Shown piece after piece: positions 13,217 to 54,843 of a DNA stretch of 64,000 nucleotides (the stretch's first letter is position 1; every line of letters starts with the position of its first letter). A program made the translations under genes and the position numbers. Under the pieces are notes generated by a model. That model saw nothing but the letters and a program-made list of their open reading frames with translations. It had not been told where the DNA came from and did not search any database. This DNA comes from Escherichia coli. Lineage in GTDB: Bacteria > Pseudomonadota > Gammaproteobacteria > Enterobacterales > Enterobacteriaceae. The stretch lies in NCBI RefSeq assembly GCF_051903065.1, contig NZ_CP178439.1. The stretch is one strand, 5' to 3'.

Positions 13217-13218
13217 CC

Positions 13219-23324: not shown

Positions 23325-23355
23325 TCGTGGAAACGATAGGCCTATGCCATGCGGG

Positions 23356-25589: not shown

Positions 25590-26409
25590 GGCACTGTTGC
25601 AAAGTTAGCGATGAGGCAGCCTTTTGTCTTATTCAAAGGCCTTACATTTCAAAAACTCTGCTTACCAGGCGCATTTCGCCCAGGGGATCACCATAATAAA
25701 ATGCTGAGGCCTGGCCTTTGCGTAGTGCACGCATCACCTCAATACCTTTGATGGTGGCGTAAGCCGTCTTCATGGATTTAAATCCCAGCGTGGCGTTGAT
25801 TATCCGTTTCAGTTTGCCATGATCGCATTCAATCACGTTGTTCCGGTACTTAATCTGTCGGTGTTCAACGTCAGACGGGCACCGGCCTTCGCGTTTGAGC
25901 AGAGCAAGCGCGCGACCATAGGCGGGCGCTTTATCCGTGTTGATGAATCGCGGGATCTGCCACTTCTTCACGTTGTTGAGGATTTTACCCAGAAACCGGT
26001 ATGCAGCTTTGCTGTTACGACGGGAGGAGAGATAAAAATCGACAGTGCGGCCCCGGCTGTCGACGGCCCGGTACAGATACGCCCAGCGGCCATTGACCTT
26101 CACGTAGGTTTCATCCATGTGCCACGGGCAAAGATCGGAAGGGTTACGCCAGTACCAGCGCAGCCGTTTTTCCATTTCAGGCGCATAACGCTGAACCCAG
26201 CGGTAAATCGTGGAGTGATCGACATTCACTCCGCGTTCAGCCAGCATCTCCTGCAGCTCACGGTAACTGATGCCGTATTTGCAGTACCAGCGTACGGCCC
26301 ACAGAATGATGTCACGCTGAAAATGCCGGCCTTTGAATGGGTTCATGTGCAGCTCCATCAGCAAAAGGGGATGATAAGTTTATCACCACCGACTATTTGC
26401 AACAGTGCC
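25590..26409 (-). mobile_element. tnpA: IS26 copy 3, transposase CDS 25642..26346, Asn at residue 184
   Basis: IRs at both ends; inverted relative to copy 2. Confidence 0.95.
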
Positions 26410-26566
26410 CTTCATCATTATGAATATGAAAAAGCCGAATGCGGCGACTACCACATTTATCCCCGGGGCTATGGACGCAGCAACTTTGCAGGGCGCAATC
26501 GAAAAAGCTCGCGGGGCCTAAAGTTACTTTCACTTTTGATGAGTACGGCCATGCCGGTCATGGCCG

Positions 26567-27826
26567 CTACGCTTTTACAACGAGTAATTCATCCCAGCGG
26601 GTCGTATATCTCGGTGATAGCATGGCCTGTTTCATACGAAAATCCTGTTGAATGCCTTCCCCCAGCAAAAACAGAGCTCCGCGCTTTTCTTTATTGAACC
26701 GGTCCATAACTTTCATCAGTGCCTGACTGCCAGGCCTGGCCGGGCGCTCATCAAACAGGCTGAGTTGCTCTGTGCCGTCAGTCATAGCGGAGAGCATTAC
26801 CCCAGCTTTCGCATACGCTATCCCGGGTTTGTAAATGCGGTTCAGGATGGTCATGGCTGCATCAACCAGATCGCGGGTGTCCTGTGTAGCGGTAAGCGGC
26901 TCGATACCACAATTGCTGTAGCGGTTTTCACCTTGCGCATAATTGCTGCTCTGAATGAAGACTGTGATTTGACGGGTCCACGAGCCATCCTTGCGCAGCT
27001 GCTCTGCCGCCCGGGCGGTAAAAAATGAAACTGCCTCATGTAGCTTGCCTATCTCATTAAGGCGCTGACCAAAACTTCTGGAAACGATAATCTGTTGCCG
27101 GACAGGAGGGGATTCATGCAGCCGGAAACATGGTTCGCCATGCAGTTCCCGCCAGGTACGCTCGATTTCAACGCCAAAGCTTTTACGTAAAAAGCGAACG
27201 TCGCTATTATAAAAATCACCGGCAGTGATGATCCCGAAAGCCGACAGGCGTTCACTGATCTTTTGACCAATACCCCATATTTCTCTGGTACTGATAAGGC
27301 CCAGGAGCTTCCTGATCCTGGCCTGATCAGTCAAAACTACAACCCCGCCTGTAGCTGCCCATCGTTTGCTCGCATAGGTGCATAATTTAGCCAGGGTTTT
27401 GGTGCTTGAACACCCCACACCACAGGTAAGGGACAGATTATGAAGAAGTGTACTTCTGATCAACCGGCCGTAATCTTCATAATCTATTATCTTGTTCATG
27501 TTTTTCAATAACATGAAATTTTCATCTATGCTATATCGACTCGATTGAGGCGCGAAGCTTTCCAGCGTTTCATGGAAGCGATTTGAGTAGTCTTCATACA
27601 AAGTAAAGTTAGAGCTCCGGACTTCGATCTGGTGTTGCTGAATCAAATCCCTGCACTTAAAAATTGGGGTCCCACGCTTAATACCAACGCTTTTAGCCAG
27701 TTTATTCATTGCAATGACGGACGAATCGTTATTGCTGGCTATGATGAGCGGCTTTTTTGCCAGCTTGGGATCCATCGCACACTCAAATGCCGCATAGGCC
27801 CCGTTAATATCAACGTGCATGTACAT
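26567..27826 (-). CDS. umuC: Y-family translesion DNA polymerase subunit, UmuC/MucB/ImpB-like
   Basis: 419-aa protein, MYMHVDINGAYAAFE N-terminus typical of UmuC; overlaps the upstream umuD-like gene. Confidence 0.8.
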   Translation of the reverse strand: MYMHVDINGAYAAFECAMDPKLAKKPLIIASNNDSSVIAMNKLAKSVGIKRGTPIFKCRDLIQQHQIEVRSSNFTLYEDYSNRFHETLESFAPQSSRYSIDENFMLLKNMNKIIDYEDYGRLIRSTLLHNLSLTCGVGCSSTKTLAKLCTYASKRWAATGGVVVLTDQARIRKLLGLISTREIWGIGQKISERLSAFGIITAGDFYNSDVRFLRKSFGVEIERTWRELHGEPCFRLHESPPVRQQIIVSRSFGQRLNEIGKLHEAVSFFTARAAEQLRKDGSWTRQITVFIQSSNYAQGENRYSNCGIEPLTATQDTRDLVDAAMTILNRIYKPGIAYAKAGVMLSAMTDGTEQLSLFDERPARPGSQALMKVMDRFNKEKRGALFLLGEGIQQDFRMKQAMLSPRYTTRWDELLVVKA

Positions 27827-28244
27827 GGCTAAACTGATTCAGTGCAAAGGTGACGACGCCCCATATCTCAAGGGATTCGGGATTTACACGTATCGGCTTA
27901 TAGGCTGGATTAGAAGGCATCAAAAGCAGCTCAGGATACGTGTGTAAGATCTTTACCGTGAACTCTCCATCCACCAGCGCAACGACGATAGAGCCGTGTC
28001 GTGCCGTTAAAGACCGATCCACAACCAGAATAGCGCCATCATTGATACCGGCATTGATCATACTGAGGCCCGCCGCCCTGACAAAGAAGGTTGAGGGGCG
28101 GTTACGGACTACATATTCATGCAAATTTAATTCATTATCTTCATGCCCGGCGCACGGACTCATCACTCCACAGCTCAGTAAATCACTGAAAAAAGGTGCC
28201 ATTTCGTAAGGCTTGTTGCTAATGTGCTCAAGGATAACAGACAT
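27810..28244 (-). CDS. umuD: UmuD/MucA/ImpA-like S24 peptidase (LexA-like self-cleaving)
   Basis: 144-aa protein with S24 LexA-like fold motifs (GLSMINAGINDGAILVVDRS). Confidence 0.8.
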   Translation of the reverse strand: MSVILEHISNKPYEMAPFFSDLLSCGVMSPCAGHEDNELNLHEYVVRNRPSTFFVRAAGLSMINAGINDGAILVVDRSLTARHGSIVVALVDGEFTVKILHTYPELLLMPSNPAYKPIRVNPESLEIWGVVTFALNQFSHVHAR

Positions 28245-28263
28245 AGCTACACTCGAATTCTCA

Positions 28264-28283
28264 TACTGTATGTATAAACAGTA
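28264..28283. promoter_or_regulatory. LexA box TACTGTATGTATAAACAGTA upstream of umuD-like gene
   Basis: Perfect CTGT-N8-ACAG, 20 bp upstream of the start codon. Confidence 0.75.
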
Positions 28284-28437
28284 TTGCGAGTTACAGAGAA
28301 AAGATCAAATCTCTCCGGTAACGCTATCGAGCCTGACGAAAAATTAAGCTTTGTCACAAACACCAAAAACCATCTTTTACCGATAATGGCGAGCTGGCCT
28401 ACGAAGAAGGTATACAAGCTAGGATGAAAGGATTCTG

Positions 28438-29055
28438 ATGCCCCTCCCACCAAATTTTTTATCTCCTGAAGACCAGGCTGAGTACGATGCTTATATGTCA
28501 AGATTCAGCGAGATAAATCACTATTATGATTATCACACTGTCCCCGTGATTGACTGGTTCTTTAAACAAGCAACCGAGGCGTTGCATCACGAACTATGGA
28601 TACCGGCCTGTACGAGCTTCCTGAACGGGATTGAAACATCACTCATGGTTACGTTGAAGTCGCTGATGCTGAAACCAACAGTTAACGATCAGCATGCAGC
28701 TCCTGAGCTGGTGGACTTGGAGGGTATCTCCGTAATGAGTAATGCCTTACTGAGAAAGGCCAAGCAGGAAGGGGTGCCGGTAGAATTACTTTCATTTCCA
28801 GCCGAGCAGGATATGTTGGTTAAGGTAGCAGCCGGGAGAACACCTGAAGCAGAAATTGTCAGGCTGAGAAACAACCTATGCCATGGCAACATTCTGGAGT
28901 TTATCATGTCTGTTGATATCGGTACTTCAGGACCCATACGTATTTTTACGCCTGAATGCTGTCGTGAACTGGCGCATGAACTTTCGTCCATTTCCAGGAA
29001 TTGGGTGGTAGGTTTGCACAAGTACTGGGTCGACAACAATCTGATTTCCCCCTGA
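28438..29055 (+). CDS. Hypothetical protein (205 aa)
   Basis: ORF; no family recognised. Confidence 0.5.
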   Translation: MPLPPNFLSPEDQAEYDAYMSRFSEINHYYDYHTVPVIDWFFKQATEALHHELWIPACTSFLNGIETSLMVTLKSLMLKPTVNDQHAAPELVDLEGISVMSNALLRKAKQEGVPVELLSFPAEQDMLVKVAAGRTPEAEIVRLRNNLCHGNILEFIMSVDIGTSGPIRIFTPECCRELAHELSSISRNWVVGLHKYWVDNNLISP

Positions 29056-29204
29056 AGCTCCTTGAACCTTGCTTTCAGAAGCCAGGTGTATGAAACCCTA
29101 TTGGATAATATTTAAAGCCAAAATATGGGGATCTCGTATTCGGTGACAGGCATGGTATAAATGATGTGTCTGAGCAACCATCATTGATAATCATGGAGTG
29201 AGTC

Positions 29205-29561
29205 ATGAAATTAAAATACCTTCTGTTATGTGCAACTCTGTCTGTCGCCTTTACCTCCTCTGCGGTCCTTGCATCTGAAAACGGGAAAAAACCGATCCCG
29301 GGCAAATCAGATGTGATGGTTGCCGATATTTGTTTAAAACCTGAAATCCAAAGTGAAACCGATTATAAAAAAACGAAAGAACTGGTAAGGACTGAGTTTG
29401 AAGAAAACTTGCCTGTTGGATCTAAAATCAAAGAAAAAGACTTGAATGCCGTAATTGAAGCATTTGCTACTCGTAAAAGGGACACGCCGGAGCGAGCGGA
29501 CCATTGCCAAGAAAACGTACGTGAAAGATACTGGGAAATGAACCCGGTGAAAGATAAATAA
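29205..29561 (+). CDS. Secreted hypothetical protein (118 aa) with signal peptide
   Basis: N-terminal MKLKYLLLCATLSVAFTSSAVLA signal sequence. Confidence 0.5.
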   Translation: MKLKYLLLCATLSVAFTSSAVLASENGKKPIPGKSDVMVADICLKPEIQSETDYKKTKELVRTEFEENLPVGSKIKEKDLNAVIEAFATRKRDTPERADHCQENVRERYWEMNPVKDK

Positions 29562-29586
29562 AATACATTCACGTTGTATAATATAG

Positions 29587-29612
29587 AGGCTTCAATTCTG
29601 AAGCCTTTTTTA
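29587..29612 (+). terminator. Rho-independent terminator
   Basis: AGGCTTCA-ATTC-TGAAGCCT hairpin followed by TTTTTT. Confidence 0.5.
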
Positions 29613-29810
29613 TTTTCAGATTATTTTGATTCTGACAATAATGAAATAAAATTGAGCATTATCGCTTAACACTGGATAAGAAAAAGAGCCATCTTTTATA
29701 TTGGACAGGTTTGAATTTAAGGAATTTTGGATTCACAGTTTTCTGCGTTATTAGACGGCAAGGGCAATCTGGTATGATTCACCTAACACACGAATCTGGA
29801 AGGAAAAGTA

Positions 29811-29955
29811 TATGGGTGACCTGGTCAGCAAAAATAGCATTGACCGTTTAGAGCGATTTCATTCTTTGCTGGCGGGTCAGTACTGGACGTCCACTGACAG
29901 CATCCCTGAAGAGGGTATTGTGGCAGGGGATACACTGCTCATTACGTCTTTGCGT
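29811..29955 (+). pseudogene. N-terminal 48 codons of an unknown gene, cut by IS26
   Basis: ATG with GGAAGGA upstream; reading frame runs into the IS26 left end. Confidence 0.3.
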
Positions 29956-30775
29956 GGCACTGTTGCAAATAGTCGGTGGTGATAAACTTATCATCCCCTT
30001 TTGCTGATGGAGCTGCACATGAACCCATTCAAAGGCCGGCATTTTCAGCGTGACATCATTCTGTGGGCCGTACGCTGGTACTGCAAATACGGCATCAGTT
30101 ACCGTGAGCTGCAGGAGATGCTGGCTGAACGCGGAGTGAATGTCGATCACTCCACGATTTACCGCTGGGTTCAGCGTTATGCGCCTGAAATGGAAAAACG
30201 GCTGCGCTGGTACTGGCGTAACCCTTCCGATCTTTGCCCGTGGCACATGGATGAAACCTACGTGAAGGTCAATGGCCGCTGGGCGTATCTGTACCGGGCC
30301 GTCGACAGCCGGGGCCGCACTGTCGATTTTTATCTCTCCTCCCGTCGTAACAGCAAAGCTGCATACCGGTTTCTGGGTAAAATCCTCAACAACGTGAAGA
30401 AGTGGCAGATCCCGCGATTCATCAACACGGATAAAGCGCCCGCCTATGGTCGCGCGCTTGCTCTGCTCAAACGCGAAGGCCGGTGCCCGTCTGACGTTGA
30501 ACACCGACAGATTAAGTACCGGAACAACGTGATTGAATGCGATCATGGCAAACTGAAACGGATAATCAACGCCACGCTGGGATTTAAATCCATGAAGACG
30601 GCTTACGCCACCATCAAAGGTATTGAGGTGATGCGTGCACTACGCAAAGGCCAGGCCTCAGCATTTTATTATGGTGATCCCCTGGGCGAAATGCGCCTGG
30701 TAAGCAGAGTTTTTGAAATGTAAGGCCTTTGAATAAGACAAAAGGCTGCCTCATCGCTAACTTTGCAACAGTGCC
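29956..30775 (+). mobile_element. tnpA: IS26 copy 4, transposase CDS 30019..30723, Asn at residue 184
   Basis: Both IRs present; flanks ctttgcgt / cactgatc do not match. Confidence 0.95.
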
Positions 30776-31220
30776 CACTGATCCGCATGCCCGTTCCATA
30801 CAGAAGCTGGGCGAACAAACGATGCTCGCCTTCCAGAAAACCGAGGATGCGAACCACTTCATCCGGGGTCAGCACCACCGGCAAGCGCCGCGACGGCCGA
30901 GGTCTTCCGATCTCCTGAAGCCAGGGCAGATCCGTGCACAGCACCTTGCCGTAGAAGAACAGCAAGGCCGCCAATGCCTGACGATGCGTGGAGACCGAAA
31001 CCTTGCGCTCGTTCGCCAGCCAGGACAGAAATGCCTCGACTTCGCTGCTGCCCAAGGTTGCCGGGTGACGCACACCGTGGAAACGGATGAAGGCACGAAC
31101 CCAGTGGACATAAGCCTGTTCGGTTCGTAAACTGTAATGCAAGTAGCGTATGCGCTCACGCAACTGGTCCAGAACCTTGACCGAACGCAGCGGTGGTAAC
31201 GGCGCAGTGGCGGTTTTCAT
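30776..31220 (-). pseudogene. intI1: Class 1 integron integrase intI1, N-terminal 148 codons, truncated by IS26
   Basis: [49 protein letters not shown]... ends at the IS26 boundary. Confidence 0.85.
31105..31133 (+). promoter_or_regulatory. Integron cassette promoter Pc, hybrid type (-35 TGGACA, 17-bp spacer, -10 TAAACT); P2 lacks the GGG insertion
   Basis: Hexamers read at 31105..31110 and 31128..31133 inside intI1. Confidence 0.6.
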
Positions 31221-41810: not shown

Positions 41811-41906
41811 ATGATTAACCTGTTAATCATCGTTCTCAGGGCTGTGGTCGCCGTTGCAAACGCGCTGATTGCAGTTCTGGAACTGATCCGTCAGTTCATC
41901 GACTGA
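41811..41906 (+). CDS. Candidate type I toxin, DinQ/TisB-like 31-aa hydrophobic peptide (MINLLIIVLRAVVAVANALIAVLELIRQFID)
   Basis: Hand-translated ORF; LELIR motif shared with DinQ as recalled; SD within a CTCCAG-N7-CTGGAG hairpin; terminator-like hairpin at 41928..41954. Confidence 0.45.
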   Translation: MINLLIIVLRAVVAVANALIAVLELIRQFID

Positions 41907-41972
41907 TGACTGCGGAAACGTAACTAAGGGCAGGAAGTGCACCGCTTCCTGCCCTTTAACAAAGGAGGATTT

Positions 41973-42152
41973 ATGGATTTTATGAGCATTTTGGGGCGCT
42001 GTTTACTTCTTCCTTTCCCTGTTGCGATGTTTGTCGGTTGCCTGTTTCCAGGCATTGATGATCGTTTTACTGGAATGTTCATGAGTTTTATTGTCGGTTG
42101 TCTATCGTGGTATATCACCAAGCCAAAACCGCAAAAGGCTGAGGTCGCGTAA
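41973..42152 (+). CDS. Small membrane protein (59 aa)
   Basis: Strong RBS AAGGAGG 6 nt upstream of ATG; two hydrophobic helices. Confidence 0.4.
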   Translation: MDFMSILGRCLLLPFPVAMFVGCLFPGIDDRFTGMFMSFIVGCLSWYITKPKPQKAEVA

Positions 42153-42538
42153 GCGGCCTTTTTTACGTCTCTCGTTTAATTCCTCGCCATTCTGTCCAGA
42201 AATAGTATTGCGGCTAATCAAGCCAATTCCTACGTCTTTTCGCTGTTGCACGATCTAAAAGAAAATATGGGAAAATTTCATGAAAGTATGGTACTAAAGG
42301 GTCTTTAATTCCTTTATCTTGTTCCTTCAACTGCACAGTATCTCGTAAAAACCAACAAGCCGGTTGTTTAAAAAACGCTCTTAGCGTAGGATGTTTTCCA
42401 TTTTCCAAGTGGAACCCAAGTACGATGCCCGCGAAAAAGACAGCCCTCTTATGAAGAGGGCTGTTATCTGATATAGGCTTGTTATGGTCTCACTCTTGAT
42501 TAATCAGGTGTATGTGCAACCTTGGTGCACACAATCGA

Positions 42539-44440
42539 TTATGCAGCTTGATGATCTGAAGTGTTACCGGAAGTATCTTCGGTTCGTTTTTTGTTTGTGA
42601 TGGATTCACTTTTATCTCGCAAGGCTGAGTCTATGACGTTAAACACCTTTTCCCACCGAGAAATCCAACCGCATATAGGTTGAACACGACATTTTTCCAG
42701 GAAGAAATTTAATAAGTTAGTTTTTTTATTATCTTGCACTTTGAATGGTTCAATTACATCATCGGCATCAACAGATTTTCCTCCGATAAACCACGACGGA
42801 TGGGTTTCCATTGCGTCAGAAATGAAATCGTCAGGGAAGAGGCCTTCAATAGCAAAACCACTTCTTACAGAAATATAGTCTTTATTTGACTCAAATCTAA
42901 TTTGTTTTTTACCAAAGTAGCTTTGTAATCTGGTTCTTTCTTTGACCCCAGCTTCATCACCGTCAAAAACAGATATTACGGGGACATCTTTAGAAATAAA
43001 CTCGTAGCACCCTTTCAAGAATCCCCCAAGTTGACTGACTCCACCAAACTCATCAACTTTAGCACTCCTCAGAAAAGGCCATCTGTTCTTAAACTCATCA
43101 TCTTCAGATGTCAATTTCAATATTGATTCTATATATTGTTTGTCGGTGATACCTTCAACGAAAACTGCACTACTTGATATGTTAAAGAAATCAGAAAATC
43201 TGACCCCAAGATTTTCTCTTATGCTTGCAACTGCATTAAATCTTTTTTCATGCTTTTTATCTTTTGTAACACCGGCGTCATCTTTATATAACTCAATGAT
43301 CTTACTTGGCTCATCACTGACAAATGATAAGGAATGAGTTGTAATAAGAACATAAGCAACATCCATCAGTGATTTGAAAATGTGATTACATGACCGGCCT
43401 AATGAGGGATGCAAGAAAGACTCAGGCTCCTCAACCATCCAAATCGTTTTCTTACCTAGAGTAAGTTTTCTCTCTGAAATAGATTTAAATGAAGAAAATA
43501 AAGATAAGCATTGTAGCCCCATACCTTTACTCGATATCACATTCTCAATAGTATCTTTTATTGAAACCTCAAAGCGACCAAATAACTCATCAAGAGATGG
43601 CGGAGCTTTAATAATAAAGCTACAGTCATCTATACCGCTTAGAATCATTTCATTTGTTATCTTTTCAGATACTTCCAACAGTTTATCATGAATCACTTGA
43701 ACCGATGTTTTCATGGCTGAAGCTACTTCACTCCTAACATATGGAACTAATAGATTATGATATATATCATCAATACTTTTTGACGATGGTATATACACAC
43801 ACTCAAAACTAGAAAGTATTTTTTCTATGAACCTTCTTTCAACAGATGTATACATGGAGGAAGTTACTTCAGGTTTCCTCTTGTAACCTTTAAAGACAGT
43901 GTAAAAGTAATTGTTTTTATTAGATATTGTCAGATGTACGGTCACTTCGTTTTGAGGTGACTTTAACCTGGAGTCATCAATCATGTTAAACAGCTGCAAA
44001 TATCTATCTCTCAAACTTAGCTTTCTGCCTCTTGATTGAGTTGGTTTTGATTCTTGTTGTTTAGAGCTGCCATCATCAAATGAAATAGAATTACTAGGCT
44101 CTTCTTGCTCCCCTAAAACACCAAGTTCAATAATCGAGTCATCATCGTCATCATCATCGTCTTGGCTCAAATCCTCAGAGACATCATCTAGCTCACTTTC
44201 AGAAAAAGTAAATCTTACAGCAAAACTAGTTTGTCCTTGCTTAACACCATGTGGCTTATCTTTTTCATAGTCATATAAGTCAGGATTAAATTTTCCTTCA
44301 AAAAAAACCCTCATAGCTTTTAATAGGTTTGTTTTACCACTGTTGTTTTGCCCAACAATGGTTAATCCATTAAAGTTATCAGAGGATATCTCCCCTGAAA
44401 TAGACCTATACTGAGAAACTTTAAATGATACTATTTCCAT
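42539..44440 (-). CDS. OLD-family ABC-type ATPase fused to a TOPRIM nuclease domain (633 aa)
   Basis: Walker A GQNNSGKT, Walker B IWMVEEPESFLHP, H-loop ITTHS, then TOPRIM-like VFVEGITDKQ and FDGDEAG; eight-Asp run; AT-rich. Confidence 0.7.
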   Translation of the reverse strand: MEIVSFKVSQYRSISGEISSDNFNGLTIVGQNNSGKTNLLKAMRVFFEGKFNPDLYDYEKDKPHGVKQGQTSFAVRFTFSESELDDVSEDLSQDDDDDDDDSIIELGVLGEQEEPSNSISFDDGSSKQQESKPTQSRGRKLSLRDRYLQLFNMIDDSRLKSPQNEVTVHLTISNKNNYFYTVFKGYKRKPEVTSSMYTSVERRFIEKILSSFECVYIPSSKSIDDIYHNLLVPYVRSEVASAMKTSVQVIHDKLLEVSEKITNEMILSGIDDCSFIIKAPPSLDELFGRFEVSIKDTIENVISSKGMGLQCLSLFSSFKSISERKLTLGKKTIWMVEEPESFLHPSLGRSCNHIFKSLMDVAYVLITTHSLSFVSDEPSKIIELYKDDAGVTKDKKHEKRFNAVASIRENLGVRFSDFFNISSSAVFVEGITDKQYIESILKLTSEDDEFKNRWPFLRSAKVDEFGGVSQLGGFLKGCYEFISKDVPVISVFDGDEAGVKERTRLQSYFGKKQIRFESNKDYISVRSGFAIEGLFPDDFISDAMETHPSWFIGGKSVDADDVIEPFKVQDNKKTNLLNFFLEKCRVQPICGWISRWEKVFNVIDSALRDKSESITNKKRTEDTSGNTSDHQAA

Positions 44441-44545
44441 TTTTCTTCCTACGATAGAATATTGCTCGGATTATCGACATTTTTTCCCAAGGCTTTAACT
44501 GTCTTTCGCTACTTGGATAAATGGCTCTTCCTCCACTGTTCTGCT

Positions 44546-45055
44546 TTATTTTCGCCAGAAAGCCCACCATGCATGTTGTTTGTCCTGAAGTGCTGCTTTA
44601 TCCTGAAGCAATTCAGCACTCACTGCCCCCTGAAGCACAGAAACGGCGTTTCTCGCGGCATTGCGACAGGAATCAATAACCTCTGGTTCGTTGGGCTTTC
44701 TGAGCAGGATAAATTGCGATACTTTGGACTGAGTATCAAAAGCATAGATTCGCAATTCAGGGGAGGATGTCAGGCTTACAATATTATGCAACCGCATATA
44801 ATTGGTGTAGTCCTTGCTACTTGGATCACATGATTCATAAAGATATTTCTGCATTAGCGTTTGCGATGAAGAAAGAAAATCTATATAGCGGTCAGTTTTT
44901 TTATCTATATCCCGCAGTCGCTGAGCTATTGCATCTTTTCTTATTTCGTGGCAGTGTGTTAATTTCAGTGTAATCCAGCCACCAACAATGGTGATTAATG
45001 CACCCAGCCCAATTTTAACGGCATTATCAGCCACATCTACCCACTCAGTTGCCAT
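44546..45055 (-). CDS. Hypothetical protein with N-terminal TM helix (169 aa)
   Basis: ORF 105 bp upstream of and co-oriented with the OLD-like gene. Confidence 0.45.
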   Translation of the reverse strand: MATEWVDVADNAVKIGLGALITIVGGWITLKLTHCHEIRKDAIAQRLRDIDKKTDRYIDFLSSSQTLMQKYLYESCDPSSKDYTNYMRLHNIVSLTSSPELRIYAFDTQSKVSQFILLRKPNEPEVIDSCRNAARNAVSVLQGAVSAELLQDKAALQDKQHAWWAFWRK

Positions 45056-45182
45056 CTGTTACGTGTTCTTCCTGTGATGATCATGGTCGCTAGTATAATT
45101 CTCCGGCTGACTGGACATACAGCATTTTCTGTCCAAGATTAATAACCTCGAACTGCAACACAATGCCGCAGATGATGCAAAG

Positions 45183-46031
45183 GGGGAGCCCGCAGAATTC
45201 GGAAAAAATCGTACGCTAAGGTTTTCCGGGCATCCGTAAGGGCCGAAACTTCCCGTCTTCCAGTCTGCGGCTCTGCCGCCAGACGTAATCGCCGGTTAGG
45301 TTGATGTGCTCCCAGCCCAGCGGCGACAGGAATTGCAGCAGCTCGCCGTCCACCGGCTTGCCGGCCTCGACCAACCCCTGGGTGGCGCGTTCCAGGTACA
45401 CCGTGTTCCACAGCACGATAGCCGCCGTCACCAGGTTGAGGCCGCTGGCCCGGTAGCGCTGCTGCTCGAAGCTCCGATCCCTGATTTCCCCAAGGCGGTT
45501 GAAGAACACCGCCCTGGCCAGCGAGTTGCGCGCCTCACCTTTGTTCAGGCCGGCATGCACGCGGCGGCGCAGTTCAACACTTTGCAGCCAGTCCAGGATG
45601 AACAGCGTGCGCTCGATCCGGCCCAGCTCGCGCAGGGCCACGGCCAGTCCGTTCTGGCGCGGGTAGCTGCCGAGCTTGCGCAGCATCAGCGAGGCGGTGA
45701 CGGTGCCCTGCTTGATCGAGCTGGCCAGGCGCAGGATGTCGTCCCAGTGGGCACGCACGTGCTTGATGTTCAGGGTGCCGCCGATCAGCGGGCGCAACGT
45801 CGGGTAGGCTTGCACGCCCTGCGGCACGTACAGCTTGGTTTCGCCGAGGTCGCGGATGCGCGGCGCGAAGCGGAAGCCTAGCAGGTGCATCAGGGCAAAG
45901 ACGTGATCGGTGAAGCCGGCCGTGTCGGTGTAGTGCTCCTCGATCCGCAGGTCGGACTCGTGGTACAGCAGGCCGTCGAGCACATAGGTGGAATCGCGGA
46001 CGCCGACATTCACCACGCGGGTGCTGAACGG
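45183..46031 (-). mobile_element. tnpA: Second Tn1721-type transposon end: 38-bp IR (45183..45220) plus tnpA 3' fragment, truncated by IS26 52 bp further 3' in tnpA than the copy at 17879..18779
   Basis: Identical IR and TnpA C-terminus; retained tnpA is 52 bp shorter than in the first copy. Confidence 0.85.
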
Positions 46032-46851
46032 GGCACTGTTGCAAATAGTCGGTGGTGATAAACTTATCATCCCCTTTTGCTGATGGAGCTGCACATGAAC
46101 CCATTCAAAGGCCGGCATTTTCAGCGTGACATCATTCTGTGGGCCGTACGCTGGTACTGCAAATACGGCATCAGTTACCGTGAGCTGCAGGAGATGCTGG
46201 CTGAACGCGGAGTGAATGTCGATCACTCCACGATTTACCGCTGGGTTCAGCGTTATGCGCCTGAAATGGAAAAACGGCTGCGCTGGTACTGGCGTAACCC
46301 TTCCGATCTTTGCCCGTGGCACATGGATGAAACCTACGTGAAGGTCAATGGCCGCTGGGCGTATCTGTACCGGGCCGTCGACAGCCGGGGCCGCACTGTC
46401 GATTTTTATCTCTCCTCCCGTCGTAACAGCAAAGCTGCATACCGGTTTCTGGGTAAAATCCTCAACAACGTGAAGAAGTGGCAGATCCCGCGATTCATCA
46501 ACACGGATAAAGCGCCCGCCTATGGTCGCGCGCTTGCTCTGCTCAAACGCGAAGGCCGGTGCCCGTCTGACGTTGAACACCGACAGATTAAGTACCGGAA
46601 CAACGTGATTGAATGCGATCATGGCAAACTGAAACGGATAATCGGCGCCACGCTGGGATTTAAATCCATGAAGACGGCTTACGCCACCATCAAAGGTATT
46701 GAGGTGATGCGTGCACTACGCAAAGGCCAGGCCTCAGCATTTTATTATGGTGATCCCCTGGGCGAAATGCGCCTGGTAAGCAGAGTTTTTGAAATGTAAG
46801 GCCTTTGAATAAGACAAAAGGCTGCCTCATCGCTAACTTTGCAACAGTGCC
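46032..46851 (+). mobile_element. tnpA: IS26 copy 8, transposase CDS 46095..46799, Gly at residue 184
   Basis: Both IRs present; flanks do not match. Confidence 0.95.
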
Positions 46852-47050
46852 GCGCGACGAGCAGCAGCACCAGGAGCAGAAGCACGTCGAGAAAAAGCAA
46901 CAGCAGATCGAGCAGCGCCCACGGCGGGCCGCTCGCATCGGATAAGTCGAAAAATCCGGCTAAAGTGGCCGAGCTGCACATCAGGCCGCGCGGTTTTCCT
47001 CCCTGATCGCCGGCGCGGTTTCTTCCTCCCTGAACCGCATGCAGACTTGC

Positions 47051-47080
47051 CGCCTCGGACACCCCGAGGCGGTTTTTTTT
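47051..47080 (+). terminator. Rho-independent terminator
   Basis: GCCTCGG-ACACC-CCGAGGC hairpin followed by GGTTTTTTTT. Confidence 0.5.
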
Positions 47081-47092
47081 CGCCTCGCTCGA

Positions 47093-47306
47093 GCATCGCC
47101 GCATCCGACGATGCCGAGACGACCAGGCCGCGCACGTCGAGCTGCAGCATCGCCATTGCCGACGATGGCACCAGGTCGCCGGCGGTGGCCACCGACCTCG
47201 AGCTCGCATCGCCACATCCGACGATGCGCGCCGGCGTCGACCATCGCCAGGTCTGACGATGGCGGCCGCCCTGCCCTGGATCTCGCATCGCCATTTCTGG
47301 CGATGA
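47093..47306. repeat. Five imperfect 22-bp palindromic repeats (CATCGCC-N6-GACGATG type); candidate res/accessory recombination or iteron-like sites
   Basis: Copies at 47093, 47147, 47206, 47241, 47285 with spacings 54/59/35/44 bp, upstream of the resolvase gene. Confidence 0.5.
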
Positions 47307-47430
47307 GATCCACGGAGCGGCCATTTAGACCCGCCAATAACGACCCGGCCAAGATAAATCGCATGACGGCCTTTTTGGCCGGGGGTAGCATGACCGGACA
47401 CTTTGCGTATGCCCAAAGGAGCCCGCAAGT

Positions 47431-48168
47431 ATGCGCAGGACGAAGCCAGTAGCCGCGCCGATGGTGGCGCGGGTCTATCTGCGCGTCAGCACCGACGCGC
47501 AGGACTTGGAACGCCAAGAGGCGATCACTACGGCCGCGAAGGCCGCCGGCTACTACGTCGCCGGCATCTACCGTGAGAAGGCATCCGGCGCACGCGCCGA
47601 CCGGCCTGAGCTGCTGCGCATGATCGGCGACCTACAGCCCGGCGAGGTGGTCATTGCCGAGAAGATCGACCGCATCAGCCGCCTACCTTTGCCCGAGGCC
47701 GAGCGCCTGGTGGCCTCGATACAGGCCAAAGGCGCACGCCTGGCCGTCCCTGGCGTGGTCGATCTATCCGACCTGGCGGCCGAGGCCCAGGGCGTCGCCA
47801 AGATCGTGCTGGAAGCCGTGCAGATCATGCTTTTTCGCCTGGCCTTGCAGATGGCCCGCGACGACTACGAGGACAGGCGCGAACGCCAGCGCCAAGGCAT
47901 TGAGTTGGCCCGCCAGGCCGGGCGGTACAAGGGCCGCCGTGCTGATCCGAAGCGCCGCGCCCAAGTTGTCGCGCTGCGCAAGTCCGGCTACAGCATCAAC
48001 AAGACCGCCGAGCTGGCCGGGTACAGTGCGGCCCAGGTGAAACGGATATGGGCCGAGGTCAGCCAGGCCGAAGCGAAGCAGCACGGCGCGTTCGTGGAGG
48101 ACGCATTGACGGAAGCCGATGCCCTGGCCGCTGTCGGCCAGGATGAGCGCCAGGAGGAAAGGGCATGA
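47431..48168 (+). CDS. Serine recombinase/resolvase
   Basis: N-terminal catalytic motif VYLRVSTDAQDLERQ and C-terminal HTH; GC-rich. Confidence 0.8.
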   Translation: MRRTKPVAAPMVARVYLRVSTDAQDLERQEAITTAAKAAGYYVAGIYREKASGARADRPELLRMIGDLQPGEVVIAEKIDRISRLPLPEAERLVASIQAKGARLAVPGVVDLSDLAAEAQGVAKIVLEAVQIMLFRLALQMARDDYEDRRERQRQGIELARQAGRYKGRRADPKRRAQVVALRKSGYSINKTAELAGYSAAQVKRIWAEVSQAEAKQHGAFVEDALTEADALAAVGQDERQEERA

Positions 48169-48482
48169 AGAAGCCGAACCAAGACGACGAGCCGTTTTTC
48201 ATCACCGAGGAGATTGCGGCCGAAATGATCGCCGGCGGCTATGAGTTCGAGCTGCCGCCCATTCCTTGCACCATCCGCCTACGCGACGTGCTGGAGCGCA
48301 TGACCGATGCTGAGCTAGCATTGCAGCCGGGCGAGATCGCCGACCAGGAGCGTGAACGCTGCCGGCGCAAGCCGTGTTCAACCTCATGATCTGGTCATGG
48401 TATTTTTCATGGCACTGAGCCTGATAGTTCTTGCAAATTGTTGTCACTAAAGGGTTTTGTGTGCTTGTTTACAATCGAGTGG

Positions 48483-50100
48483 GAGTGACGGGCACTGGCT
48501 GGCAATGTCTAGCAACGGCAGGCATTTCGGCTGAGGGTAAAAGAACTTTCCGCTAAGCGATAGACTGTATGTAAACACAGTATTGCAAGGACGCGGAACA
48601 TGCCTCATGTGGCGGCCAGGACGGCCAGCCGGGATCGGGATACTGGTCGTTACCAGAGCCACCGACCCGAGCAAACCCTTCTCTATCAGATCGTTGACGA
48701 GTATTACCCGGCATTCGCTGCGCTTATGGCAGAGCAGGGAAAGGAATTGCCGGGCTATGTGCAACGGGAATTTGAAGAATTTCTCCAATGCGGGCGGCTG
48801 GAGCATGGCTTTCTACGGGTTCGCTGCGAGTCTTGCCACGCCGAGCACCTGGTCGCTTTCAGCTGTAAGCGTCGCGGTTTCTGCCCGAGCTGTGGGGCGC
48901 GGCGGATGGCCGAAAGTGCCGCCTTGCTGGTTGATGAAGTACTGCCTGAACAACCCATGCGTCAGTGGGTGTTGAGCTTCCCGTTTCAGCTGCGTTTCCT
49001 GTTTGCCAGCCGGCCCGAGATCATGGGGTGGGTGCTGGGCATCGTTTACCGCGTCATTGCCACGCACCTGGTCAAGAAAGCGGGCCATACCCACCAAGTG
49101 GCCAAGACGGGCGCGGTCACCCTGATCCAGCGTTTTGGATCGGCGCTCAATCTGAATGTTCACTTCCACATGCTGTTTCTCGACGGTGTGTATGTCGAGC
49201 AATCCCACGGCTCAGCGCGTTTCCGCTGGGTCAAGGCGCCGACCAGCCCAGAGCTCACCCAGCTGACGCACACCATCGCCCACCGGGTGGGTCGCTATCT
49301 GGAACGGCAAGGCCTGCTGGAACGGGATGTCGAAAACAGCTATCTGGCCTCGGATGCGGTGGATGACGACCCGATGACACCCCTGCTGGGGCACTCGATC
49401 ACTTACCGTATCGCTGTCGGTTCACAGGCGGGGCGAAAGGTGTTCACTTTGCAAACTCTGCCGACCAGTGGTGATCCGTTCGGTGACGGGATTGGCAAGG
49501 TAGCCGGGTCCAGCCTGCACGCCGGCGTGGCGGCCAGGGCCGATGAACGCAAGAAGCTCGAACGGCTGTGCCGGTACATCAGCCGCCCGGCGGTATCCGA
49601 GAAGCGGCTGTCGTTAACACGAGGCGGCAACGTGCGCTACCAGCTCAAGACGCCGTACCGGGACGGCACCACGCACGTCATTTTCGAACCATTGGATTTC
49701 ATTGCAAGGCTGGCCGCCCTGGTACCGAAGCCCAGAGTCAACCTAACCCGCTTCCACGGGGTGTTCGCACCCAACAGTCGGCACCGGGCGTTGGTCACGC
49801 CGGCAAAACGGGGCAGGGGCAACAAGGTCAGGGTGGCTGATGAACCGGCAACACCAGCACAACGGCGAGCGTCGATGACATGGGCGCAACGGCTCAAGCG
49901 TGTTTTCAATATCGACATCGAGACCTGCAGCGGCTGCGGCGGCGCCATGAAAGTCATCGCCTGCATTGAAGACCCTATAGTGATCAAGCAGATCCTTGAT
50001 CACCTGAAGCACAAAGCCGAAACCAGCGGGACCAGGGCGTTACCCGAAAGCCGGGCGCCACCGGCTGAGCTGCTCCTGGGTCTGTTTGACTGACGAGCCT
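48483..50100 (+). mobile_element. ISCR2 (IS91-like rolling-circle element), transposase CDS 48600..50093; element boundaries approximate
   Basis: 497-aa IS91-family transposase; a second partial copy of the first ~300 bp at 52767..53072 defines the 5' boundary. Confidence 0.75.
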
Positions 50101-50123
50101 GAAGGCCAACGATACCAATCAAA

Positions 50124-51008
50124 ATGCTGCGTTCACAGCGCCGCGGCAGGGATCCGCCGTGCTGGTTGTCGGAAAAGGAGCCGCTAGTGGGAAAGAGGAG
50201 GGTAAATTTTCAGCGTTGCTGGCTCCCCGTCAGCCGGATTGGGTTGCATCGCAGGGGTGTCGAAAGAGTCAACTGCGGTCCAAAGCTGTTGGACTTGGGT
50301 GAAAAGGGCGTTTATTCTTCCTATACGTGCCGCGTTCCAGGCGGCGACTATGAGGGCTATGTCGATGCCCATGTGCGCCGGCTGGAGGCGCTACGCCGGG
50401 CCGGTATCGTCGAGCGGATCGACGCCGACCAATGGCGCATCCCCAATGATCTGGTCAGCCGTGCCGCCGCCCATGACGCCGGCCGAGACAGTCAGGCCAG
50501 CGTTCGCGTCCTTTCCCCGGTCGATCTGAACAAACAGATCGGATCGGACGGCGCGACCTGGCTGGACCGGCGGCTGATCCACGGCGAGACGGCCGACCTT
50601 GCGCCAACCGGCTTCGGGCAACAAGTCCGCGAAGCCATGGACCAGCGCCGCGAGCACCATATCGAACAGGGCGACGCCACCCGCAGCCGGGACAGCCGCG
50701 TCTTCTACCGGCGCAACCTTCTCGCCATCCTGCGGGAGCGCGAGGTAGCCGGCGTCGGATCGGATATGGCTTTGAGTAAGGGCCTGCCGTTCCGCGCCGC
50801 CACGGACGGCGAGAGCGTCAGCGGCAAGTTTACCGGAACCGTGCATCTATCGAGCGGCAAGTTCGCCGTGGTCGAGAAATCCCATGAGTTCACCCTTGTC
50901 CCGTGGCGGCCGATCATCGACCGCCAACTCGGCCGCGAGGTTATGGGCATCGTGCAGGGCGGGTCGGTGTCGTGGCAGTTAGGGCGGCAGAGGGGGCTGG
51001 AACGCTGA
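50124..51008 (+). pseudogene. Relaxase-like (VirD2-like) fragment commonly found between ISCR2 and floR
   Basis: ORF in the position described for the virD2 relic of floR loci; identity not verified. Confidence 0.35.
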
Positions 51009-51088
51009 GTGCGCCCATGCCGCATTGCGAAGCAAAAGATAATCGGATAAAATGTAGCAATTCATATTCGTAAGCGTGGAGTAATCAG

Positions 51089-51148
51089 ATGGGAAATTCC
51101 AAGTCAGCAGACAAGTAAGCCGCAACAACCAGTATTGTTGTTGCGGCG
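51089..51148 (+). promoter_or_regulatory. floR leader: 9-codon peptide MGNSKSADK plus GCCGCAACAACC...GTTGTTGCGGCG hairpin
   Basis: Read directly; parallels the cmlA leader at 32605..32669. Confidence 0.5.
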
Positions 51149-51224
51149 CTCTGTAAGGCTAGTCTCATCTGATTGCTGACGAGCAGACGTCGCCCGGTAT
51201 TCCTTAATCGAGGGTTGATTCGTC

Positions 51225-52439
51225 ATGACCACCACACGCCCCGCGTGGGCCTATACGCTGCCGGCAGCACTGCTGCTGATGGCTCCTTTCGACATCCTCG
51301 CTTCACTGGCGATGGATATTTATCTCCCTGTCGTTCCAGCGATGCCCGGCATCCTGAACACGACGCCCGCTATGATCCAACTCACGTTGAGCCTCTATAT
51401 GGTGATGCTCGGCGTGGGCCAGGTGATTTTTGGTCCGCTCTCAGACAGAATCGGGCGACGGCCAATTCTACTTGCGGGCGCAACGGCTTTCGTCATTGCG
51501 TCTCTGGGAGCAGCTTGGTCTTCAACTGCACCGGCCTTTGTCGCTTTCCGTCTACTTCAAGCAGTGGGCGCGTCGGCCATGCTGGTGGCGACGTTCGCGA
51601 CGGTTCGCGACGTTTATGCCAACCGTCCTGAGGGTGTCGTCATCTACGGCCTTTTCAGTTCGATGCTGGCGTTCGTGCCTGCGCTCGGCCCTATCGCCGG
51701 AACATTGATCGGCGAGTTCTTGGGATGGCAGGCGATATTCATTACTTTGGCTATACTGGCGATGCTCGCACTCCTAAATGCGGGTTTCAGGTGGCACGAA
51801 ACCCGCCCTCTGGATCAAGTCAAGACGCGCCGATCTGTCTTGCCGATCTTCGCGAGTCCGGCTTTTTGGGTTTACACTGTCGGCTTTAGCGCCGGTATGG
51901 GCACCTACTTCGTCTTCTTCTCGACGGCTCCCCGTGTGCTCATAGGCCAAGCGGAATATTCCGAGATCGGATTCAGCTTTGCCTTCGCCACTGTCGCGCT
52001 TGTAATGATCGTGACAACCCGTTTCGCGAAGTCCTTTGTCGCCAGATGGGGCATCGCAGGATGCGTGGCGCGTGGGATGGCGTTGCTTGTTTGCGGAGCG
52101 GTCCTGTTGGGGATCGGCGAACTTTACGGCTCGCCGTCATTCCTCACCTTCATCCTACCGATGTGGGTTGTCGCGGTCGGTATTGTCTTCACGGTGTCCG
52201 TTACCGCGAACGGCGCTTTGGCAGAGTTCGACGACATCGCGGGATCAGCGGTCGCGTTCTACTTCTGCGTTCAAAGCCTGATAGTCAGCATTGTCGGGAC
52301 ATTGGCGGTGGCACTTTTAAACCGTGACACAGCGTGGCCCGTGATCTGTTACGCCACGGCGATGGCGGTACTGGTTTCGTTGGGGCTGGTGCTCCTTCGG
52401 CTCCGTGGGGCTGCCACCGAGAAGTCGCCAGTCGTCTAA
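51225..52439 (+). CDS. floR: Florfenicol/chloramphenicol efflux MFS transporter FloR
   Basis: 404-aa protein MTTTRPAWAYTLPAALLLMAPFDILASLAMDIYLPVVPAMPGILNTTPAMIQ... Confidence 0.9.
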   Translation: MTTTRPAWAYTLPAALLLMAPFDILASLAMDIYLPVVPAMPGILNTTPAMIQLTLSLYMVMLGVGQVIFGPLSDRIGRRPILLAGATAFVIASLGAAWSSTAPAFVAFRLLQAVGASAMLVATFATVRDVYANRPEGVVIYGLFSSMLAFVPALGPIAGTLIGEFLGWQAIFITLAILAMLALLNAGFRWHETRPLDQVKTRRSVLPIFASPAFWVYTVGFSAGMGTYFVFFSTAPRVLIGQAEYSEIGFSFAFATVALVMIVTTRFAKSFVARWGIAGCVARGMALLVCGAVLLGIGELYGSPSFLTFILPMWVVAVGIVFTVSVTANGALAEFDDIAGSAVAFYFCVQSLIVSIVGTLAVALLNRDTAWPVICYATAMAVLVSLGLVLLRLRGAATEKSPVV

Positions 52440-52466
52440 CCGACGACTGGTAGCAGGCCCGCTCCG

Positions 52467-52772
52467 ATGCGGCGCACTAACCATCGAAACCTCGTGAATG
52501 TCGGTATCCTGTCTGGCAGGATACCGCTCATTTCCCTTGTTCAGTTCATCGCCGTCGCCGAGCATCTGAATTTTCGGCATGCGGCCAAGGCACTTGGTAT
52601 CAGCCAGTCGAGCGTCAGCGCGCGTGTGAAAGCGCTGGAGGATAACCTTGGTGTCCTGCTATTTGAGCGCCATGCGCGGGGCGTTCGGCTAACAGACGCA
52701 GGCAGGCACTTCATGGAGCGTGTCACGGCGGGTGTCGATCAACTCGATCACGCAGTGAAGACCGCGGAGTGA
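52467..52772 (+). pseudogene. LysR-family regulator, N-terminal HTH fragment, truncated by partial ISCR2
   Basis: FIAVAEHLNFRHAAKALGISQSSVSARVKALE HTH; ends where ISCR2 homology begins. Confidence 0.6.
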
Positions 52773-53072
52773 CGGGCACTGGCTGGCAATGTCTAGCAAC
52801 GGCAGGCATTTCGGCTGAGGGTAAAAGAACTTTCCGCTAAGCGATAGACTGTATGTAAACACAGTATTGCAAGGACGCGGAACATGCCTCATGTGGCGGC
52901 CAGGACGGCCAGCCGGGATCGGGATACTGGTCGTTACCAGAGCCACCGACCCGAGCAAACCCTTCTCTATCAGATCGTTGACGAGTATTACCCGGCATTC
53001 GCTGCGCTTATGGCAGAGCAGGGAAAGGAATTGCCGGGCTATGTGCAACGGGAATTTGAAGAATTTCTCCAA
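52767..53072 (+). mobile_element. Partial ISCR2 (5' ~300 bp only)
   Basis: Matches 48483..48790; diverges after GAATTTCTCCAA. Confidence 0.8.
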
Positions 53073-53317
53073 AGCCCGCGACGCAGCGCCGGCAGGCAGA
53101 GCAAGTAGAGGGCAGCGCCTGCAATCCATGCCCACCCGTTCCACGTTGTTATAGAAGCCGCATAGATCGCCGTGAAGAGGAGGGGTCCGACGATCGAGGT
53201 CAGGCTGGTGAGCGCCGCCAGTGAGCCTTGCAGCTGCCCCTGACGTTCCTCATCCACCTGCCTGGACAACATTGCTTGCAGCGCCGGCATTCCGATGCCA
53301 CCCGAAGCAAGCAGGAC
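53073..53317 (-). pseudogene. tet(A): tet(A) internal 3' fragment fused to partial ISCR2 and cut by IS26
   Basis: Reverse complement matches tetA positions ~23047..23294 of this window. Confidence 0.8.
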
Positions 53318-54137
53318 GGCACTGTTGCAAATAGTCGGTGGTGATAAACTTATCATCCCCTTTTGCTGATGGAGCTGCACATGAACCCATTCAAAGGCCG
53401 GCATTTTCAGCGTGACATCATTCTGTGGGCCGTACGCTGGTACTGCAAATACGGCATCAGTTACCGTGAGCTGCAGGAGATGCTGGCTGAACGCGGAGTG
53501 AATGTCGATCACTCCACGATTTACCGCTGGGTTCAGCGTTATGCGCCTGAAATGGAAAAACGGCTGCGCTGGTACTGGCGTAACCCTTCCGATCTTTGCC
53601 CGTGGCACATGGATGAAACCTACGTGAAGGTCAATGGCCGCTGGGCGTATCTGTACCGGGCCGTCGACAGCCGGGGCCGCACTGTCGATTTTTATCTCTC
53701 CTCCCGTCGTAACAGCAAAGCTGCATACCGGTTTCTGGGTAAAATCCTCAACAACGTGAAGAAGTGGCAGATCCCGCGATTCATCAACACGGATAAAGCG
53801 CCCGCCTATGGTCGCGCGCTTGCTCTGCTCAAACGCGAAGGCCGGTGCCCGTCTGACGTTGAACACCGACAGATTAAGTACCGGAACAACGTGATTGAAT
53901 GCGATCATGGCAAACTGAAACGGATAATCAACGCCACGCTGGGATTTAAATCCATGAAGACGGCTTACGCCACCATCAAAGGTATTGAGGTGATGCGTGC
54001 ACTACGCAAAGGCCAGGCCTCAGCATTTTATTATGGTGATCCCCTGGGCGAAATGCGCCTGGTAAGCAGAGTTTTTGAAATGTAAGGCCTTTGAATAAGA
54101 CAAAAGGCTGCCTCATCGCTAACTTTGCAACAGTGCC
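53318..54137 (+). mobile_element. tnpA: IS26 copy 9, transposase CDS 53381..54085, Asn at residue 184
   Basis: Both IRs present; flanks do not match. Confidence 0.95.
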
Positions 54138-54843
54138 TGATGAAGCCGGGTGTGCCGGTGATCCCAAGCGCTTCGCCCAGCTGCATGTTGCCGGAGATCA
54201 CGTTTTCATATCGGTTTTTTTCCCTGTCAGAAAACGTGCTGTTAAACCCTGACTTATCCACCACAGTATTAAAGTCGCTGAGTTCGAATTTGCGTTGAGA
54301 GGTCATGAAGGTATGAGCCACAGCCATCAGGTTGTTGTGGTATTTACGATAGGCTTCAGCACCGAAATTCTGATAGACGTGCAGACCCGTAGCGGCCCCC
54401 ATGGCAGATACAGGTTTTGAACCGGCAAAAATCGGGAATTCTTTAAAGAAGAATTTTACATCTTTGCTCTGATTCATTACCGATTCAACAACAGGTGTAA
54501 CCCGCATGCAGTAAATACACTGATAGTCGAAGAACTCGATTACCGCGACGTCGGCGTCATCCGGGCCGATGTTTGGCGTCTCCTTGGTATCCAGCAGAGC
54601 TGGCGCATATGGAATTATTCGTTCCACTGAGGCACTTACGTTCTGATTTTCCAGCGCCTTACCTGCTTCCACTAAATAATGGGGATTTTTTACCAGGTAA
54701 GTAGCGGCAATTTTGCCAATTTCTTCCTCACTGAGCACCTTCGGTTTAAAATAAGTTGCCGCGATTAACGCCGAGGCAGCGGTAGCAATTACCGCAGAAA
54801 TTAAAATCGTGGCCATCGGTTTTAAATAAAATTCTTTAGACAT
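54138..54843 (-). pseudogene. Thioredoxin-fold DsbA/DsbC-like protein, 3'-truncated by IS26
   Basis: CIYC active-site motif, N-terminal TM/signal; reading frame runs into IS26. Confidence 0.55.

Follow-up and report, generated by a model that had tools for sequence, protein, structure and literature searches.

Organization of the floR locus

In the stretch of Escherichia coli DNA analysed here (64,000 nucleotides of contig NZ_CP178439.1, one strand; hereafter the window), the phenicol efflux gene floR lies in a segment bounded on both sides by IS26. From left to right it comprises:

46032..46851, + strand: IS26 with canonical Tnp26, the left module boundary
46852..48481, + strand: ARI-B-derived spacer with a serine recombinase ORF (47431..48168) and a small ORF (48165..48389)
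48482..50093, + strand: intact ISCR2 (ISVsa3), from the terIS-side end to the transposase stop codon
50124..51008, + strand: virD2-like / DUF3363 relaxase C-terminal fragment
51225..52439, + strand: floR, phenicol efflux gene, with 3 SNPs against pAR060302
52467..52772, + strand: ΔlysR, 101 aa, N-terminal HTH domain only
52766..53072, + strand: ΔISCR2, terIS-side end, 301-307 bp (BLAST against the whole window)
53067..53072, no strand: microhomology CTCCAA, 6 bp (three-way sequence comparison)
53067..53317, - strand: Δtet(A), nt 922-1172 of the 1200-nt gene, i.e., codons 308-390
53318..54137, + strand: IS26-v1 (Tnp26 G184N), the right module boundary

The transposase gene of the intact ISCR2 (48600..50093) encodes a 497-aa member of ISCR clade Ia in the IS91 family, annotated in relatives as the ISVsa3 transposase. 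Directly oriented, the two bounding IS26 copies enclose a passenger of 6,466 bp (46852..53317), which is the organization of a pseudo-compound transposon or translocatable unit. An IRR adjoins the passenger at its ARI-B end and an IRL at its tet(A) end, while the IRR of the right-hand copy adjoins the IncHI2 backbone. The outer 8-bp flanks of the two copies differ (CTGAACGG versus TGATGAAG), with no common duplication between them. The copies also differ as variants, the left one being canonical and the right one carrying G184N, which calls for integration next to a variant copy that was already in place, or else for an exchange among IS26 copies at a later time. Across the window, the G184N substitution stems from AA for GG at nt 613-614 and sets the copies starting at 18780, 25590, 29956 and 53318 (IS26-v1; four of the eight complete copies) apart from those at 849, 33026, 35026 and 46032. 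This variant has been described as the more active one (PMC9019673, citing Pong et al. 2019).

Anatomy of the junction between ISCR2 and tet(A)

The truncated ISCR2 downstream of floR is identical at all 307 positions to 48482..48788 of the intact element (BLAST within the window). It holds the 118 bp upstream of the transposase gene and the first 61-63 of its 497 codons; both oriIS and the catalytic domain are missing. Homology begins precisely at the point where lysR is cut, i.e., at the element boundary, and the last 7 nt of ΔlysR, stop codon included, are supplied by the ISCR2 end. The fragment thus originates from the terIS end of ISCR2, by virtue of its full identity and its start at the boundary, and is not an autonomous ISCR2/ISVsa3, which would have the 497-aa transposase gene and the oriIS end. 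In previous work, the terIS end was placed on the side of three upstream ORFs (PMC6052338). A small ORF at 52884..53108 matches positions 19-71 of the ISCR clade Ia / IS91 family profile. The BLAST match to ISCR2 reported as 310 bp at 99.7% is an extension through one mismatch beyond the true junction.

The tet(A) piece that follows is the reverse complement of 23046..23296, with 251 of 251 positions identical (E=1e-129; BLAST within the window), and is equally identical (251/251) to the tet(A) of pAR060302. By nucleotide identity its origin from tet(A) is plain, even though the first 921 nt at the 5' side of the gene are missing, as are its native last 28 nt. Its length is 245 bp unambiguously and 251 bp at most, the six positions CTCCAA at the fusion point being common to the ISCR2 and tet(A) matches. 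Beyond this point the tet(A) frame continues into ISCR2 and reaches a stop at 53039..53041, with a tail ending in RNSSNSRCT as in the ARI-B-type Tet(A). At the other end, IS26 (GGCACTGTTGCAAA...) directly adjoins the piece, the flank at its joint with IRL being AGCAGGAC.

These comparisons bear out the first-pass annotation of a reverse-strand tet(A) piece of 245 bp set on about 300 bp of ISCR2 and cut by IS26, downstream of floR and a truncated lysR. It had placed the locus at 52767-53317, of which the end is exact and the start one base late, the true start being 52766.

Taken on its sequence, the segment 52766..53317 is an inert junction scar and its Δtet(A) a non-functional pseudogene fragment. 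A functional tet(A) has a complete ORF of 399 codons for an MFS transporter with 12 TMS, a start codon and a tetR-controlled promoter; the fragment has neither start codon nor promoter and would encode only about the last two transmembrane segments, and IS26 stands in place of the 5' 921 nt, the promoter and tetR. The ORF of 289 codons at 53039..53908 is a mechanical read-through antisense to tnp26.

Derivation from an ARI-B-type island

The type 1 IncC plasmid pAR060302 carries a sul2/ARI-B island with floR-tetAR-strAB-sul2 (PMC3155540). The window from 46031 to 53317 is collinear with 22024..29310 of this plasmid over 7,287 bp at 99.945% identity, with 4 mismatches and no gaps; these four SNPs are at window positions 50445, 51702, 51930 and 52323. 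The alignment spans the left IS26 and its inner junction, which is the same in the two, the resolvase, ISCR2, the virD2-like ORF, floR, ΔlysR and the ΔISCR2/tet(A) junction, and it stops exactly where IS26 cuts the tet(A) of the window. The annotated order in pAR060302 is correspondingly IS26, recombinase, ISVsa3, DUF3363/virD2-like ORF, floR, LysR stub, tet(A) and tetR, followed by a transposase fragment, strB, strA and sul2.

In pAR060302 (NC_012692) and in the IncHI2 plasmid pD208, the tet(A) beside ΔISCR2 is full length, and its translation is still 399 aa, as long as that of the Tn1721-type gene. The last nine residues of this fused Tet(A), RNSSNSRCT, come from ISCR2, as against the native SGAGQRADR in the intact copy of the window. 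Both forms of the tail are scored as 100% tet(A) in the AMRFinder-based PLSDB annotation.

A comparison of the ΔISCR2/tet(A) junction of the window with that of ARI-B found no difference. With the junction and the fused tail both being the same, the fragment is very probably a relic of an ARI-B-type floR-tet(A) island, cut out as an IS26-bounded florfenicol-resistance module. The proposal in the first-pass annotation that this is what remains of a floR-tetA resistance island is thus supported by a gapless alignment that includes the identical junction. The likeness to the ARI-B island of pAR060302 (22,024-34,100) extends to order, orientation, junctions, the CTCCAA fusion point and the ISCR2-encoded Tet(A) tail; in contrast, the tet(A) of the window is cut by IS26 after 251 bp with no tetR-strBA-sul2 next to it, and the segment sits in an IncHI2 multiresistance region rather than at the ARI-B site of an IncC backbone. 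As membership in IncC ARI-B entails both that site and sul2, the floR segment of the window is derived from an ARI-B-type island and is not itself an ARI-B island. It also resembles the general context ISCR2-virD2-floR-lysR-ISCR2/ΔISCR2 described for floR (PMC6885840; PMC4947595), with an intact ISCR2 upstream and a truncated one downstream that cuts lysR, differing in that the downstream ISCR2 is down to about 300 bp and is fused to tet(A).

The intact tet(A) module

The window has a second tet(A) module, placed between the IS26 copies at 18780 and 25590:

19600..25589, + strand: module ΔstrA-strB-ΔtnpA(Tn1721)-tetR-tet(A)-pecM-ΔtnpA'
21369..22046, - strand: tetR
22125..23324, + strand: intact tet(A)
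23356..24240, - strand: pecM, EamA/PecM-type transporter
24705..25589: ΔtnpA', Tn3-family transposase fragment, profile positions 384-662, cut by IS26

The tet region of Tn1721 is said, after the 1992 work of Allmeier et al., to run tetR-tetA-pecM-ΔtnpA'-IR. The intact copy likewise has the native 3' end, pecM and a Tn3-family tnpA fragment, and Tn1721-type IR ends occur in the window at 17888 and 45202, whereas the Δtet(A) fragment has none of these features. However, the intact copy is only a remnant in relation to Tn1721 and is joined to strB exactly as in ARI-B: the window from 19600 to 23296 corresponds, without gaps, to 32756..29060 of pAR060302 (3,697 bp, 2 mismatches, 99.946%). It departs from ARI-B exactly at tet(A) nt 1172, which is the ISCR2 fusion point, and from there on keeps the native last 28 bp and pecM. 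The two segments of the window together tile ARI-B from 22024 to 32756 with an overlap of 251 bp. The sole SNP between this tet(A) and that of ARI-B is at window position 22401 (T93 versus A93), outside the overlap.

The collinearity on the tetR side with the right part of ARI-B argues for a single Tn5393/Tn1721 remnant as the ancestor of both tet(A) sequences, of which the pecM-linked one seems to represent the condition prior to the fusion with ISCR2-floR. Going by its gene neighborhood, the intact tet(A) is not in a complete or independent Tn1721. The first-pass annotation had it followed by pecM and tnpA in a Tn1721 context and concluded that two different contexts of tet(A) acquisition are retained on the plasmid. 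The gene order is right, and the Tn1721 context and the distinction between the two copies hold for the 3' side; on the tetR side, where both share the ARI-B remnant, the claim was overstated. The comparison of SNPs between the two tet(A) segments that it had suggested yields 0 differences in 251 bp and hence discriminates nothing.

Further Tn1721-related sequences lie around this module. The Tn3-family tnpA fragments on its two sides, 24705..25589 (profile positions 384-662) and 17902..18779 (680-954), are not contiguous, with about 50 bp missing, and the flanks of the IS26 copies are unmatched; therefore, more than one IS26 event separated them. A direct repeat of 853 bp at 99.9% identity (17866..18717 and 45179..46031) comprises the 3' end of a Tn1721-type tnpA with the terminal inverted repeat, and each of its copies ends at or near an IS26. 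A comparable duplicated ΔTnp1721 of 848 bp is known from related IncHI2 plasmids (PMC9019673).

Alternative explanations of the fragment

One alternative would have the 251 bp copied from the resident intact gene at 22125..23324, and the perfect identity over this length is what such a local duplication would leave. However, on either side of the 251 bp the two copies have different surroundings: at nt 1172 there is ΔISCR2 in one and the native last 28 bp with pecM in the other, and at nt 921/922 there is IS26 in one and the rest of tet(A) in the other. Moreover, the same junctions recur in hundreds of replicons besides this one. Among them is pAR060302, in which the 40 kb examined contain no tet(A) other than the one at the junction, and this one lacks an adjacent pecM. 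Local duplication, which the first-pass annotation had named as the finding that would overturn its reading, is refuted by the conservation of these junctions in unrelated replicons and retains a next to negligible probability; the view that there are two separate IS26-bounded modules stands. A similarly minute probability attaches to an artefact of assembly, i.e., a chimeric join across the repeated IS26 and tet(A). With eight complete IS26 copies, a partial one and other repeats, the window is indeed prone to misassembly, but the ΔlysR-ΔISCR2-ΔtetA-IS26 string recurs at 100% identity in many independently finished plasmids and genomes, and neither junction lies inside a long repeat.

Greater weight, albeit still small, may be given to a single acquisition, wherein the fragment and the intact gene are the two sides of one ARI-B-like island that was split by IS26 and inverted between strA and tet(A), with the 3' end and pecM restored by homologous recombination with a Tn1721-type copy. 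The tiling of ARI-B by the two segments with their 251-bp overlap speaks for it, as do pMTY18780-1 and pTM-G17, in which a single IS26 has Δtet(A) at its IRL and ΔstrA-strB-ΔtnpA-tetR-tetA at its IRR, with the tet segment inverted relative to ARI-B (breakpoints in strA and tet(A)) as an IS26 inversion leaves it. Yet, such an inversion duplicates 8 bp rather than 251 bp and would cut tet(A) at nt 929; ARI-B has neither the native last 28 bp nor pecM, which makes a second donor of the Tn1721 type necessary anyway; PLSDB yielded no match across the reciprocal junction; and outside the overlap one SNP (T93 versus A93) separates the intact tet(A) from that of ARI-B. We judge this account improbable. 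As a source of the 251-bp duplication, the entry of a Tn1721-derived IS26 unit into the tet(A) of ARI-B by homologous recombination was also considered and dropped, no extant intermediate having been found in PLSDB.

A route of formation

The relic of an ARI-B-type island that we favor could have come about in the following way. The ΔISCR2/tet(A) fusion lies inside ISCR2, far from its functional ends and at a microhomology, which points to illegitimate recombination rather than rolling-circle transposition. This event would have joined the terIS end of ISCR2 to tet(A) at the 6-bp microhomology, 28 bp ahead of the tet(A) stop, the ISCR2 copy involved being the one with floR-ΔlysR upstream. Its product would have been the floR-ΔlysR-ΔISCR2-tet(A)-tetR order of ARI-B, with a Tet(A) having nine ISCR2-encoded C-terminal residues; when this occurred relative to the assembly of the remaining ARI-B is something that we infer. 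Later, in an island of this kind, IS26 would have acted at tet(A) nt 921/922. The copy that probably did so is the island's own IS26, which lies left of ISCR2, the reaction being an intramolecular replicative transposition in direct orientation. A circular translocatable unit may thereby have been released, made up of one IS26 and the 6,466-bp segment 46852..53317, whose last 251 bp, the tail of tet(A), would be joined to IRL. Upon integration beside IS26 copies already present in IncHI2, IncF/IncR and further replicons, such a unit would yield the IS26-ISCR2-floR-ΔtetA-IS26 module seen in the window.

This route follows the model of IS26 action that is reportedly established by the work of Harmer and Hall. 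The direct orientation of the bounding copies, the lack of a shared 8-bp duplication and the joints of tet(A) with IRL and of the ARI-B end with IRR are the geometry expected of a translocatable unit. Both intramolecular replicative transposition by IS26 and the deletion of translocatable units have been described in IncHI2 plasmids (PMC9019673). The same scar would result if IS26 had simply inserted in tet(A) and the other side had then been lost. The reciprocal junction, with the IRR of IS26 followed by AGCAGGAC and the 5' part of tet(A), had no spanning match in PLSDB; with this junction, which either the deletion product or a simple insertion would carry, not found there, the translocatable-unit route is not directly documented, and we consider the two about equally probable.

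The IncHI2 setting and an IS26-mediated inversion

To the right of the module, the window from 54138 to 64000 is 100% identical to the IncHI2 backbone of pD208, with TrhH/TraG-type genes, and the closest relatives are IncHI2A plasmids of 230-280 kb. The backbone resumes within a DsbA-family gene:

54138..54145, + strand: TGATGAAG, one copy of an 8-bp IS26 target duplication, in the IncHI2 DsbA-family gene

The partner copy of TGATGAAG lies in reverse complement at 26410..26417, at the IRL of the inverted IS26 at 25590..26409 (- strand), and the pair constitutes the only matching 8-bp IS26 flanks in the window. Both IS26 copies sharing this duplication are v1. Further, 26410..27282 of the window is the reverse complement of pD208 12594..11722, and the window from 54138 onward continues from pD208 12587. 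The matching flanks and the alignment with pD208 together indicate that an IS26 event in the DsbA-family backbone gene left the 27 kb at 26410..53317 inverted. Because of this inversion, Δtet(A)-IS26 adjoins the backbone here, whereas in relatives it adjoins ΔstrA-strB-tetR-tet(A)-pecM. The exact IS26/DsbA-gene junction was not found in PLSDB, where each of the top matches is a composite of two pieces that lie apart. The single-IS26 arrangement Δtet(A)-IS26-ΔtnpA1721', the precursor from which one event would give the 27-kb inversion, also had no spanning match in PLSDB, and a one-step reconstruction of the history of the window is accordingly unsupported.

Several other features mark this multiresistance region. 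About 1.8 kb of the window (27283..29072), which holds most of umuC (26567..27826), umuD (27810..28244) and an ORF of 205 aa, is missing from the otherwise identical backbone stretch of pD208. A partial IS26 (39111..39411; the first 301 bp only) lies between gshB (37471..38934) and a ramA-family regulator gene (39941..40306). Cargo elsewhere, in 1..18779 and 30776..46031, includes sul3 (3689..4480) and a dcm methylase gene (11059..12528), and there are also ΔintI1-dfrA-arr cassettes (30669..32412), aph(3')-Ia (34087..34902) between inverted IS26 copies, and an IS4321-like element of the IS110 family (36049..37053).

Distribution and earlier descriptions

The uninterrupted ΔlysR-ΔISCR2-tetA-tetR arrangement is present in at least 860 PLSDB plasmids, as counted with a query made of the ΔlysR-ΔISCR2-Δtet(A) of the window plus the rest of tet(A) and tetR, at least 80% of which had to be covered in one place. 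Of 5,426 complete E. coli genomes, 574 match a 240-bp query across the ΔISCR2/tet(A) junction at its center. The corresponding 240-bp query for the Δtet(A)/IS26 junction is matched across that junction by at least 80 PLSDB plasmids as well as 44 E. coli genomes, in one of which it is chromosomal. The whole ΔlysR-ΔISCR2-Δtet(A)-IS26 string of 981 bp occurs at 100% identity in 40 listed plasmids from Escherichia, Salmonella, Shigella, Enterobacter and Klebsiella; the 962 records that match this string are not a count of the IS26-cut form, for the full-length form also covers more than 80% of the query.

The IS26-bounded floR module is found between different outer flanks in pTM-G17 (IncFIA/IncR; 99.89% match to window 46032..54137) and in the IncHI2 plasmids pTBMCR401 and pMTY18780-1, while pAR060302 shares only the left junction of the IS26-bounded unit. 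This presence in different replicons with different flanks, including one E. coli chromosome, is the behavior of a translocatable unit. The arrangement has been written as 'IS26-ISCR2-floR-ΔtetA-IS26' for Salmonella Kentucky ST198 and the IncHI2 plasmid pMTY18780-1 (PMC10100706), and an ARI-B-like form in F33 plasmids as 'floR, ΔtetA-tetR, strA, strB, sul2', compared with pAR060302 (PMC6052338). The module of the window is the same as the published one (PMC10100706; AP023198), its exact Δtet(A)/IS26 junction being 100% identical in AP023198 and in many further records; it differs from these relatives in what follows the right IS26, which is ΔstrA-strB-tetR-tet(A)-pecM or Tn2 in them and the DsbA-family backbone gene directly in the window. 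Thus, the structure of the scar is already known, widespread and ordinary.

Implications

With Δtet(A) on the minus strand and the intact tet(A) on the plus strand, some 30 kb away, the two constitute an inverted repeat of 251 bp, and this is the one activity conceivable for the fragment. One might imagine this scar serving as a handle for recombination, with populations alternating between two island architectures and two Tet(A) C-termini; the geometry of the sequence would allow it, although we regard it as highly improbable. Were it so, RecA-dependent recombination between the two tet(A) segments would invert 23297..53066; this would rebuild the ARI-B linkage strB-tetR-tet(A)*-ΔISCR2-ΔlysR-floR and, at the same stroke, put RNSSNSRCT in place of SGAGQRADR as the last 9 residues of Tet(A).

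The value of these observations is practical, with no new biology implied. For annotators, a 251-bp tet(A) match at this location is a pseudogene, and in the 'reference' Tet(A) that is widespread with ARI-B-type islands, the nine C-terminal residues derive from ISCR2. As a lineage marker, the string ΔISCR2/Δtet(A)/IS26 is precise, by which the floR module can be traced across replicons and species and which shows that the floR module of these IncHI2 plasmids came out of an IncC ARI-B-type island.
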